Source of the DNA: a virus
Taxonomy: Duplodnaviria; Heunggongvirae; Uroviricota; Caudoviricetes
Length of the DNA: 4,109 nucleotides
Virus record (IMG/VR): IMGVR_UViG_2534681941_000034
Reading direction: 5' to 3' (one strand)
Position 1 is the stretch's first letter, and every line of letters starts with the position of its first letter. The translations under genes and the position numbers were made by a program. Below, one piece after another: positions 1 to 4,109 of this stretch. The notes below the pieces were generated by a model. It did no database searches. It was not told the DNA's origin and saw nothing but the letters and a program-made list of their open reading frames with translations.

Positions 1-417
1 CATATTGTGCCGCGACTGGCCGGGGCCGGAAAGGGTGGACTGCAGATTGTGCTGGGGGCGGCAGCCATCGTGGGGTCGTTCTTCACTGCCGGGGCATCAA
101 TGGCGTTATGGGGTTCAGCCCTGGCAGCCGGTGGTTTTTCTGCCACCACGATGCTGTTTTCACTTGGAGCCAGCATGATTCTGGGCGGTGTGGCCCAGAT
201 GCTGGCCCCGAAGGCAAAAACACCGGATTACCGCGCAACGGATAACGGCAGACAGAACACGTACTTTTCCTCGCTGGATAACATGATTGCCCAGGGGAAC
301 CCGATGCCGGTGCCTTACGGGGAAATGCTGGTTGGCTCCCGCCGTATATCCCAGGACATCAGCACCCGTGATGAAGGTGGGGGCGGAACGGTCGTGGTTG
401 TCGGGCGACAGGGATAA
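1..417 (+). CDS. Tail assembly protein I (lambda gpI family), C-terminal part; the 5' end lies upstream of the window. The track ORF begins at an internal GTG at 7, but the frame is open from base 1.
   Basis: Frame 1 is open from base 1 to the TAA at 415-417. The translation (glycine/alanine-rich hydrophobic stretch, then ...YFSSLDNMIAQGNPMPVPYGEMLVGSRRISQDIS...) matches my recollection of the gpI C-terminus. It sits immediately upstream of a J homologue, as in lambda (K-I-J order). Confidence 0.8.
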   Translation, partial: HIVPRLAGAGKGGLQIVLGAAAIVGSFFTAGASMALWGSALAAGGFSATTMLFSLGASMILGGVAQMLAPKAKTPDYRATDNGRQNTYFSSLDNMIAQGNPMPVPYGEMLVGSRRISQDISTRDEGGGGTVVVVGRQG

Positions 418-420
418 AAC

Positions 421-456
421 ATAAAAAAATCCCGCAGTGATCGCGGAGCTGCGGGG
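421..456 (-). terminator. Rho-independent terminator, functional on the minus strand only
   Basis: Perfect 7-bp GC-rich inverted repeat cccgcag (431-437) / ctgcggg (449-455) with an 11-nt loop. On the minus strand the stem is followed directly by AUUUUUUUAU (complement of 421-430). There is no T-run after the stem on the + strand. Confidence 0.55.
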
Positions 457-520
457 ACAGACAAATGAAGATCAATGTTAAGGAGTTGTTTTTGTTACTC
501 GGGCAAAAAAACACTAACGC
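422..520 (-). ncRNA. Candidate small regulatory RNA (about 100 nt), transcribed antisense to the tail operon from the promoter at 527-554 and ending at the terminator at 421-456
   Basis: The predicted transcript has no AUG and no plausible ORF. It has a 5' imperfect hairpin, a C/A-rich single-stranded tract (AACAAAAACAAC), an A/U-rich internal region, and a 3' GC stem plus U-tail, which is the usual layout of Hfq-dependent sRNAs. The start site is inferred from promoter geometry (about 7 nt after the -10), so the 5' end is accurate only to a few nt. Confidence 0.45.
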
Positions 521-526
521 AGCGAA

Positions 527-554
527 ATTATAAGCGCCACAGTCAGTGTGTGAA
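527..554 (-). promoter_or_regulatory. Sigma70-type promoter on the minus strand: -35 TTCACA (549-554), 16-bp spacer, -10 TATAAT (527-532)
   Basis: Read on the minus strand: ttcaca, 16 nt, tataat. The -10 is a perfect consensus and the -35 matches TTGACA at 5 of 6 positions. An A/T-rich stretch lies just upstream (complement of 555-580), resembling an UP element. Confidence 0.5.
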
Positions 555-626
555 AATGTGAAGATATTCAGAATTTTTATGCCATTACCGGTTTTAACCA
601 ACAGGATTATCGGTGGGCATGAAAGA

Positions 627-662
627 AAACCCCGGTATCTGCTGATACCGGGGTTTCTCTTT
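627..662. terminator. Bidirectional Rho-independent terminator
   Basis: Perfect 10-bp inverted repeat ccccggtatc (630-639) / gataccgggg (644-653) with a 4-nt loop (tgct). It is flanked by an A-rich run upstream (gaaagaaaa, 621-629) and a T-rich run downstream (tttctcttt, 654-662), so it should terminate on either strand. Confidence 0.7.
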
Positions 663-745
663 AGCATGGCAGAAATGTGTTTCATGCTTTTCGGGCGAAG
701 GATATCCGACTTCTGTACGGAATGGCAAGTGGCGGTTAATTTATT

Positions 746-755
746 CAGGGGAAGG
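746..755 (+). promoter_or_regulatory. Ribosome-binding site for the J gene
   Basis: Purine-rich aggggaagg lies 4-10 nt upstream of the ATG at 760-762. There is no in-frame start further upstream, because frame 1 has a TGA at 643-645. Confidence 0.4.
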
Positions 756-759
756 CTGT

Positions 760-1509
760 ATGGGAAAAGGTGGCGGTAAGGCACACACGCCTCGTGAGGC
801 GAAGGATAATCTCAAATCCACGCAGATGATGAGTGTGATTGATGCGATTGGTGAGGGACCGATAGAAGGTCCGGTGAAGGGACTGCAGAGTATTCTGGTG
901 AACAAAACCCCACTGACGGACACGGACGGCAATCCCGTGATACACGGTGTGACCGCGGTCTGGCGTGCCGGGGAGCAGGAGCAGACACCACCGGAAGGCT
1001 TTGAGTCCTCCGGAGCTGAAACCGGACTGGGCGTGGAAGTGACGAAGGCAAAACCGGTGACGCGCACCATTACGTCCGCGAACATTGACCGCCTGCGGGT
1101 CACCTTCGGGGTGCAGTCACTGTTGGAGACCACCTCAAAGGGCGACCGTAATCACTCTTCTGTCCGACTGCTGATTCAGTTGCAGCGTAACGGTAACTGG
1201 GTGACGGAAAAGGATGTCACCATTAACGGCAAGACCACCTCGCAGTTCCTGGCGTCGGTGATTCTGGATAATCTGCCGCCCCGGCCCTTTAACATCCGGA
1301 TGGGTCAGGGAGACGGCGGACAGCACCACGGACCAGCTGCAGAACAGAACGCTGTGGTCGTCATACACCGAAATCATCGATGTGAAACAGTGCTACCCGA
1401 ACACGGCCATTGTGGGGCTGCAGGTGGATGCGGAGCAGTTTGGCGGTCAGCAGATGACGGTGAACTACCATATCCGCGGTCGCATCATCCAGGTACCGTC
1501 AAACTATGA
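760..1509 (+). CDS. J fragment 1: N-terminal part of the host specificity protein J homologue. Genuine similarity ends near 1302; the remaining 3' tail of this ORF is out-of-frame read-through.
   Basis: ATG at 760 with an upstream purine-rich RBS. The first 181 residues resemble the lambda gpJ N-terminus closely. After NIRM the translation becomes low-complexity G/H/A-rich sequence with no resemblance to gpJ, while frame 2 picks up the similarity. Confidence 0.6.
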
Positions 1510-3706
1510 CCCGGAAAAACGCACGTACAGCGGCATCTGGGACGGCAGCCTGAAACCGGCATACAGCAACAACCCTGCCTGGTGCCTGTGGGACATGCTG
1601 ACCCACCCGCGCCACGGAATGGGAAAACGCCTGGGGGCGGCGGATGTGGACAAGTGGGCGCTGTATGCCATTGCGCAGTACTGCGACCAGACGGTCCCGG
1701 ATGGTTTCGGGGGCACTGAGCCGCGGATGACTTTCAATGCGTACCTGTCACAACAGCGTAAGGCGTGGGACGTTCTCAGTGATTTCTGCTCGGCGATGCG
1801 CTGTATGCCGGTATGGAACGGGCAGACGCTGACGTTTGTGCAGGACCGTCCGTCAGATGTGGTGTGGCCCTACACCAGCAGTGATGTGGTGGTGGATGAT
1901 AACGGCGTGGGGTTTCGCTACAGCTTCAGCGCCCTGAAGGACCGCCACACGGCGGTGGAGGTGAATTACACCGACCCGCAGAACGGCTGGCAGACCTCCA
2001 CGGAACTGGTGGAAGACCCGGAAGCCATACTGCGCTACGGGCGCAACCTGCTGAAGATGGATGCGTTCGGCTGTACCAGTCGCGGTCAGGCCCACCGTGC
2101 CGGGCTGTGGGTGATAAAGACCGGACTGCTGGAAACGCAGACGGTGGATTTCACGCTCGGGTCACAGGGGCTGCGTCACACACCCGGTGACATTATTGAA
2201 ATCTGTGATAACGACTATGCCGGGACCATGACCGGCGGACGTGTCCTGTCCATCGATGCCGCCAGCCGCACCCTGACACTGGACCGTGAGGTGACCCTGC
2301 CGGAGACCGGTGCCGCCACGGTGAACCTGATTAACGGCAGCGGTAAGCCGGTGAGCGTGGCCATCACTGCACACCCCGCGCCGGACCGGATACAGGTCAG
2401 CACCCTGCCGGATGGCGTGGAGACATACGGTGTGTGGGGGCTCTCCCTGCCGTCACTGCGTCGTCGCCTGTTCCGCTGTGTCTCCATCCGGGAAAACACG
2501 GACGGCACCTTTGCCATCACGGCAGTGCAGCACGTACCGGAAAAAGAAGCCATCGTGGATAACGGGGCGCACTTTGACGGCGACCAGAGCGGCACCCTGA
2601 ACAGCGTCATCCCTCCGGCAGTGCAGCACCTGACGGTGGAGGTGAGTGCAGCTGACAGCCAGTATCTGGCGCAGGCGAAATGGGACACGCCGCGGGTGGT
2701 GAAGGGCGTGCGCTTCAGTCTGCGCCTGACCAGTGGAAGCGGTCAGGACAGCCGTCTGGTGACCACCGCCATCACTGCGGATACAGAGCATCGTTTCAGT
2801 GGTCTGCCGCTCGGGGAATACACCCTGACAGTCAGGGCAATTAACAGTTATGGCCAGCAGGGGGAACCGGCCATCACCACCTTCCGGATTAACGCGCCAG
2901 CAAAACCCGCCACCATTGAACTGACGCCGGGGTATTTTCAGATAACGGCGGTACCGGTGCTGGCGGTGTATGACCCGACGGTGCAGTTTGAGTTCTGGTT
3001 TTCGGAAAAACGCATCACGAACACGGCACAGGTGGAAAAATCTGCCCGTTATCTGGGGAGCGGCAGTCAGTGGACTGTCCAGGGAAGCCGGATTAAGCCG
3101 GGGACGGATTTCTGGTTTTACGTGCGCAGCGTCAACCTGGTGGGGAAATCTGCGTTTGTGGAAGTCAGCGGGCAGCCCAGCAATGATGGTGAAGGGTATC
3201 TGGAATTTTTCCGGGAAAAAATAGGAAAACTGCATCTGGCTCAGGGGCTATGGGAGCTGATAGACAACAGCCAGCTTGCGGATGAGATGGCGGAGATGAA
3301 GACCACCATCACGGAAACCCGCAATGAAATCACACAGACGGTCAGTAAAACGCTGGAGAACCAGAGCGCCACTATACAGCAGATACAGCGCGTGCAGAAG
3401 GACACAAATGATGACCTGGCTGCGCTGTACATGCTGAAGGTTCAAAAAACGAAAGACGGCATTCCCTATGTGGCCGGGATTGGTGCAGGGATTGAGGATA
3501 CTGATGGCCAGCCACTGAGCAACATACTGCTGCTGGCTGACCGTATCGCGATGATAAATCCGGAGAGCGGCAACAGCACGCCGTTATTTGTGGCGCAGGG
3601 GAATCAGCTGTTCATGAACGACGTGTTCCTGAAGCGACTGTTTGCGGTGAGTATCACCTCGTCCGGCAATCCCCCGACGTTTTCCCTGACGCCGGAGGGC
3701 GGCTGA
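1382..3706 (+). CDS. J fragment 2: central part of the host specificity protein J homologue, including two tandem fibronectin type III-like repeats (about 2612-3189) and the conserved [17 protein letters not shown] segment.
   Basis: Frame 2 is open from 1262 to the TGA at 3704-3706, and gpJ-like similarity begins at about 1307, upstream of the first GTG (1382). The 774-aa translation is collinear with the gpJ centre (e.g. [65 protein letters not shown]). Confidence 0.7.
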
Positions 3707-4109
3707 CGGCGAGAAATGCTGATATCAGTGGTAGTGTGAATGCGAATTCCGGGACGCTCAACAACGTCACGATTAACGAGAACTGTCGGGTTCTGGGAAA
3801 ACTGTCCGCGAACCAGATTGAAGGCGATCTCGTTAAAACAGTGGGCAAAGCTTTCCCCCGGGATTCCCGTGCACCGGAGCGGTGGCCATCAGGGACCATT
3901 ACCGTCAGGGTTTATGACGATCAGCCGTTTGACCGGCAGATTGTTATTCCGGCGGTGGCATTCAGCGGCGCTAAACATGAGAGAGAGCATACTGATATTT
4001 ACTCCTCATGCCGTCTGATAGTGCGGAAAAACGGTGCTGAAATTTATAACCGTACCGCGCTGGATAATACGCTGATTTACAGTGGCGTTATTGATATGCC
4101 TGCCGGTCA
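3700..4109 (+). CDS. J fragment 3: start of the C-terminal (receptor-binding) region of the host specificity protein J homologue; partial, running off the window end.
   Basis: Frame 1 is open from 3556 to the window end and is missing from the supplied track only because it has no stop in the window. From 3700 it translates to [54 protein letters not shown]...[18 protein letters not shown]...VIDMPAG, collinear with the lambda gpJ C-terminal region but clearly diverged from it. Confidence 0.7.

Follow-up and report, generated by a model that had tools for sequence, protein, structure and literature searches.

Two compensating frameshifts in a lambda-type J gene are probably a consensus artefact of collapsed prophage repeats

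We found that the frameshifts interrupting a lambda-type J gene on a short draft contig are very probably an artefact of a chimeric, collapsed-repeat consensus, rather than the mark of a biological pseudogene. The window, by which we mean the whole 4,109-bp stretch of DNA that was analysed, corresponds to contig AIFL01000016.1 of draft assembly GCA_000249395.2 in its entirety, as identified by an exact-product look-up. Its sequence joins three types of J that belong to separate prophages in E. coli O157:H7 (TccP-prophage type at 1–1247, Sp14 type at 1248–3695 and a third type, X, at 3697–4109), and both of its frame-changing indels lie no more than one read length from a switch between types. 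The J sequence as shown is probably not that of one real locus. A sequence-only reading of the window had judged an error of sequencing or assembly more likely than long-term decay; the three-paralogue composite, together with a double-gap hybrid at the second switch, supports that preference. The same reading had described the indels as independent events in an otherwise well-conserved gene; we find them tied instead to the joints of what is probably a chimeric consensus.

The contig is a short orphan with both of its ends inside genes, and the gene caller split its J into products of 249, 659 and 124+ residues. J-like sequence is present at 8–13 places per O157:H7 genome and is therefore repeat sequence for an assembler. 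As comparisons, we used the TccP-prophage J of O157:H7 NE122 (L001), the J of 03_3013 (L002), the Sp14-type J of CEC96047, EC4115 and Sakai (L211 to L213) and three J copies of O157:H7 PV15-279 (L004, L005 and L210). X denotes the third J type, carried by 03_3013 and by the PV15-279 copy at 2.67 Mb, while T denotes the sequence that is common to the TccP-, Sp14- and Sp9-type copies at the second switch. In the closest annotated loci, the genes run in the order tape measure, M, L, K (C40 peptidase), I, J, lom and side tail fibre. The window has gene I upstream of J (1–417) and stops before the J stop codon, so that the placement of lom and stf is taken from relatives, where both follow J (L001, L002, L211 and L212). 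The features of the window are collected in Table 1.

Table 1. Annotated features of the 4,109-bp window (positions counted from its first base).
Feature	Position	Strand	Remarks
Tail assembly gene I, 3′ part	1–417	+	Truncated by the contig start; alignment with the 'tail assembly protein' CDS in L001 and L002
I–J spacer, TccP-prophage type, 340 bp	418–759	.	Identical to L001
J N-terminal segment, frame 1	760–1300	+	ATG at 760; Pfam FNIII-A_GpJ; TccP-prophage type to 1247, Sp14/Sp9 type from 1248
GGG run with extra G (+1 partner indel)	1301–1303	+	GG in all homologues
J middle segment, Sp14 type, frame 2 relative to the start codon	1304–3695	+	Pfam Phage-tail_3, Ig_J, Ig_J_second, Phage_Tail_Tip
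Missing-base site (−1)	3696–3701	+	GGAGGGCGGCTG versus GGAGGGCAGGCTG (X type) or GGACGGGCGACTG (T type)
Hybrid zone, alternation of X and T SNPs	3697–3750	+	Combination of bases absent from all sequences searched
J C-terminal segment, frame 1 again, X type	3700–4109	+	Pfam Ig_GpJ_C; cut off by the contig end, some 43 codons short of the J stop
TGA closing the frame-2 reading	3704–3706	+	Same bases span codons CTG ACC or CTG ACG in intact homologues

The gene itself is an ordinary lambda-type J. When one G is removed at 1301–1303 and one base is added at 3700, the repaired gene encodes a stop-free protein of 1,116 aa that is collinear with lambda gpJ residues 1–1089. A phmmer search of the PDB matched this product to 8iyk_J with 1694.6 bits (query 1–835 to 1–836 and query 858–1116 to 832–1089), and the families FNIII-A_GpJ, Phage-tail_3, Ig_J, Ig_J_second, Phage_Tail_Tip and Ig_GpJ_C follow one another in canonical order, all above their gathering scores. 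The three J fragments called on the contig match the same six Pfam families. The window J is thus like the tip attachment protein of lambda (gpJ, PDB 8iyk chain J) in its collinearity, in its domain order after a two-base repair and in having gene I upstream. It is unlike gpJ in that its frame is broken twice as written, that the gene runs off the contig and that a spacer of 340 bp separates I from J.

As written, J does not occupy a single uninterrupted frame, as stops are reached at 1507 in frame 1 and at 3704 in frame 2. Frame 1 is interrupted by 33 stops over 1507–3538 and is open again from 3700 to the contig end, where it is collinear with lambda gpJ; frame 2 is open from 1382, has no stops over 1259–3704 and ends at the TGA at 3704–3706. 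Therefore, the frame truly changes twice. Compared to the intact J of 03_3013 (96.2% identity), exactly two differences change the frame, the extra G at 1301–1303 and the missing base near 3700, and a further length difference of 3 nt at 2577–2590 is in frame; this result is a deterministic outcome of the alignment and not a statistical one. The sequence-only reading had already ended frame 2 at this TGA, resumed gpJ in frame 1 from 3700 and noted that the two indels cancel, and our reading of the frames, the alignment of the repaired product to 8iyk_J and the stop-free repaired frame agree with it on each point. The cancellation is real as arithmetic and is functionally meaningless, because frame 1 stops at 1507.

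The composite structure of the window is apparent when each of its parts is compared to its nearest relative. Over 1–1247, the window differs from the NE122 TccP-prophage locus by two SNPs, both in gene I (positions 75 and 78) and both matching other O157 paralogues, and by none over the J portion (760–1247). Over the next 2.4 kb (1248–3690), its nearest intact relative is the CEC96047 J, and the extra G and one SNP (2243) are the only differences between the two; the second indel lies at the boundary of this stretch. Over 3640–4109, the differences from the 03_3013 J are the −1, five T-type bases (3708–3735) and one SNP (3939), again with nothing else. Set against seven O157:H7 copies, which come from five genomes, the alignable J sequence of the window has no private differences other than the two indels. 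Substitutions outnumber indels roughly tenfold in E. coli mutation-accumulation studies. Two indels beside one substitution in 2.4 kb are the reverse of this natural spectrum, and private differences that are all indels therefore look technical and not evolutionary.

We did not find the composite in any of 5,426 complete E. coli genomes, where the best full-length match has 96.2% identity. Mosaic structure has to be read with care in this gene family. The T-type copies are mosaics of one another, lambdoid J genes recombine pervasively in nature, and a mosaic alone is therefore not proof of chimerism. The contig ends show no obvious coincidence with the points where the paralogues diverge, as compared across a five-locus panel.

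The second switch, from T to X, is located at 3696 and coincides exactly with the −1. The window reads CGCCGGAGGGCGGCTGACGGCGA over 3690–3712, and every homologue that we aligned has one more base than the window at 3696–3701. At this site, E. coli 03_3013 and the PV15-279 copy at 2.67 Mb have GGAGGGCAGGCTG, while the O157:H7 TccP-prophage, Sp14-type, Sp9-type and 1.69-Mb copies have GGACGGGCGACTG. The missing base maps to 3696 or to 3700/3701, depending on the reference used, which places it within or adjoining the interval 3698–3703 where the sequence-only reading had proposed the loss of one base. T and X are related here by a compound change, and under four scoring schemes their optimal alignment contains two offsetting one-base gaps (GGAC GGGC- in T and GGA- GGGCA in X). 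The window holds the gap state in both of the offsetting columns, which amounts to a net loss of one base.

Downstream of the −1, the window alternates between the two types. It carries X bases at 3697, 3700 and 3702, at 3713 and 3720, at 3732 and from 3747 on; T bases are found at 3708 and 3711, at 3729 and at 3734 and 3735. When the step from T at 3637 is included, there are seven switches of type in about 110 bp, and a single crossover cannot yield this SNP pattern. After 3860, the T-type copies can no longer be aligned.

The first switch, from the TccP type to the Sp14/Sp9 type, falls between 1161 and 1248, and the +1 lies 54–141 bp downstream of it. This partner indel is an extra G that converts ATGGTC to ATGGGTC; all 172 alleles in a fetched panel of about 200 loci have GG at the site. 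We looked in this panel for an allele, or a pair of alleles, whose gapped alignment could give rise to the +1 by mixing, and found none at the site. The +1 has no specific mixing mechanism and is most simply attributed to a generic homopolymer miscall.

Both indels are unique to this contig. The window strings that carry them are GGAGGGCGGCTGACGGCGAG and ATGGGTCAGG, and likewise GGCTGACGGCGAGAAATGCTGATATCAGTGGTAGTG and ATCCGGATGGGTCAGG. A 61-mer across the −1 has no match above 93.5% in the 5,426 complete E. coli genomes, and the full-length matches to 3560–3860, among those listed, span 302 bases compared to 301 in the window. The 191-mer around the +1 (1230–1420) is matched at 190/191 by 213 records of complete E. 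coli genomes, almost all of them O157:H7 and with Sakai Sp9 among them, and the span is 190 bases in every match listed. Exact-pattern scans for both indel alleles returned no match in species-representative genomes and none in IMG/VR, where the corresponding intact alleles have 96 and at least 120 matches; a scan of metagenome contigs for the −1 allele alone also returned none. The hybrid 36-mer at 3701–3736 is absent from the 5,426 complete E. coli genomes, from IMG/VR and from metagenome contigs, and none of the roughly 200 fetched loci has the window's combination of SNPs at the second site. The products of 249 and 659 aa are on record on AIFL01000016.1 only.

These features are best explained as follows. 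Reads derived from three or more lambdoid prophage copies of J would have been merged when the genome of an O157:H7-like E. coli was assembled to draft level, with the 5′ arm contributed by the TccP-prophage copy, the middle by Sp14-type sequence (which is common with the TccP type from 1409 on) and the 3′ arm by a third, X-type copy. At 3696, where T and X begin to diverge, a column-wise consensus on mixed reads would have taken the gap at both columns; this double gap would remove one base and bring GGC TGA into frame. The same column-wise mixing would make the following 50 bp flip between types, as reads of two paralogues overlap briefly before the divergent copy drops out. The +1 (GG to GGG) would be a homopolymer-length miscall in a poorly supported join near the first switch. 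We infer consensus calling on mixed reads as the cause from the form of the sequence; column-wise mixing accounts for the −1 and not specifically for the +1, although both anomalies lie at the joints. The window shares with collapsed or chimeric repeat contigs, as they arise in draft EHEC assemblies with many lambdoid prophages, its orphan state, its multi-copy sequence, its mosaic of paralogues that are separate loci in finished genomes and its private indels at the joints. Such contigs are usually proven by read depth and read-level haplotypes; our analysis used the consensus sequence.

Several alternatives would accept one or both indels as real. The contig could record a genuine pseudogene, in which gene conversion between prophages produced a recombinant J that then bore a real +1 at 1302 and a real −1 at 3696–3701, leaving a tail-tip protein in three fragments and a prophage without infectious tailed particles. 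True pseudogenisation had been offered as the alternative by the sequence-only reading, and it was reasonable a priori, as real J lesions are present in complete O157:H7 genomes; J genes also recombine naturally. In Sakai Sp14, a 1-nt deletion in a CCC run (window-equivalent 1870) splits J into ECs_2720 and ECs_2719, and at least 11 of the best 60 complete genomes carry the same deletion (a span of 1,200 compared to 1,201). The TccP-prophage J of NE122 contains a 599-bp tandem duplication of window 1673–2271, is annotated as two partial pseudogenes and has the duplication in common with at least three other records; if the source strain carried it, the draft would be expected to have collapsed this duplication too. 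In PV15-279, the annotation of the J copy at 2.67 Mb records a frameshift, and this copy has (GA)5 instead of (GA)4. The genuine J pseudogenes (Sakai Sp14 and the 599-bp duplication) resemble the window in gene family, in host lineage and in having J split by a single-base indel or a length change. However, their lesions recur in many independent complete genomes, as expected of an inherited pseudogene whose lesion is common to independent assemblies of related strains, while both window indels are confined to one 4.1-kb draft contig and lie at or near paralogue switch points. The exact double-gap hybrid followed by SNP-by-SNP alternation, the single substitution beside two indels in 2.4 kb and the absence of the composite from every complete genome searched also speak against a genuine pseudogene, which we consider unlikely. 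A related and decidedly unlikely possibility is that the contig is faithful and that J was newly rebuilt by gene conversion among three resident prophages, so that the indels and the SNP tract at 3697–3750 would be left over from recombination at the tract ends that was error-prone and patched by mismatch repair.

The two indels could also differ in origin, for example with the +1 being true slippage in a G run and the −1 a consensus artefact. Their local contexts do differ, a homopolymer in one case and a compound paralogue difference in the other, and a specific artefact mechanism is available for the second indel only. Nonetheless, the +1 is missing from all complete genomes, even though 213 records otherwise match its 191-bp surroundings perfectly, it is missing from IMG/VR and the species representatives as well, and no more than one read length separates it from the first switch; such a mixed case is very unlikely. 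Finally, programmed ribosomal frameshifting could read through both changes and yield a full-length J, a proposal that draws on the arithmetic cancellation of the +1 and −1 and on nothing more. Neither site has a slippery heptamer, frame 1 does not stop until 205 nt after the first indel and has no conserved signal there, and ribosomes would have to shift twice, at sites 2.4 kb apart. We rejected programmed frameshifting, as J is single-frame in all relatives at both sites, and we regard recoding as having next to no chance of being correct. The chimeric, collapsed-repeat consensus remains the explanation that we favor, and the possibility of true pseudogenisation raised by the sequence-only reading stands for the lineage, where real J pseudogenes exist, and is unlikely for the window, whose indels are found in no independent assembly among those searched.

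The distinction matters for data hygiene. Draft EHEC assemblies collapse many near-identical lambdoid prophages, and 'pseudogenes' or 'recombinant' alleles of tail fibres that no cell carries can appear in the collapsed contigs. Counts of J pseudogenes, inferences of host range and calls of 'cryptic' prophages that are based on such contigs would mislead. We suggest that a chimeric consensus can be recognized when all of four features occur together: indels private to one short contig, their location at paralogue switch points, a double-gap hybrid signature and alternating SNPs nearby. If the indels were real, the prophage would be without a functional tail tip, and if the contig were faithful, it would capture recombination-associated mutagenesis in the act of inactivating a tail gene.

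The spacer between I and J was considered separately as a candidate small RNA locus. It has no Rfam match at E ≤ 1, and it is neither AgvB nor AsxR, as both of these sRNAs are located at the PR′ moron site instead; we found no link between the spacer and the Pas sRNA described in a preprint. The spacer does contain a promoter-like site on the minus strand and a terminator-like site.

The 1-nt deletion that splits Sakai Sp14 J into ECs_2720 and ECs_2719 falls within a CCC run, and we employed it as the positive control for a real J lesion. A span one base shorter, as in Sakai, is present in at least 11 of the 60 complete O157:H7 genomes that match best, and the Sp14-type J is intact in EC4115 and CEC96047. 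The Sakai frameshift is genuine and inherited.

The J gene of the TccP prophage in O157:H7 NE122 contains a 599-bp tandem duplication, which is also found in at least three further complete genomes. Its length is not a multiple of 3, and the annotation splits the duplicated gene into two partial pseudogenes. This duplication, which would be collapsed in a short-read draft, is absent from the window.

Over the first 1,247 bp, the window differs from the TccP-prophage locus at only two positions, 75 and 78 in gene I, and both bases are those of other O157 paralogues (the PV15-279 copies at 2.67 and 2.75 Mb). These differences are consistent with paralogue mixing in the 5′ arm as well.

Two length differences within J were also observed. 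At the dinucleotide tract of X-type J, the type that matches the window's 3′ arm, 29 other loci have (GA)4, while the PV15-279 copy at 2670437-2673914, annotated as frameshifted, has (GA)5; the tract may be prone to slippage. At window positions 2577-2590 the J types further differ in sequence and, by 3 nt in frame, in length (GACGGCGACCAGAGC versus GAGCCGCAGTCA). This polymorphism is located in the linker preceding the first Ig-like domain and represents natural variation and not damage.

Features of J and the I-J spacer (window 418-759)
Feature	Location	Strand	Window equivalent	Description
Split Sp14 J	L213 (Sakai Sp14 J locus) 2812-6290		1870	ECs_2720/ECs_2719
Duplicated TccP-prophage J	L001 (NE122 TccP-prophage locus) 3760-7838; NE122 chromosome 2096516-2100594		1673-2271	
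(GA)4 dinucleotide tract	window 3979-3986			C-terminal receptor-binding domain of X-type J
Sigma-70 promoter-like site	window 554->527	minus		I-J spacer; near-consensus TTCACA-16-TATAAT, 11/12
Terminator-like site	window 447->431 plus T-run	minus		I-J spacer; GC hairpin and T-run

In the I-J spacer, the hairpin and T-run lie about 80 nt downstream of the promoter-like site on the same strand. A transcript running between the two sites would be about 100 nt long and convergent with gene I; the spacer had no match in Rfam. The I-J position is a moron insertion site, because sodC occupies the equivalent position in another O157 prophage, that of the PV15-279 copy at 2.67 Mb.
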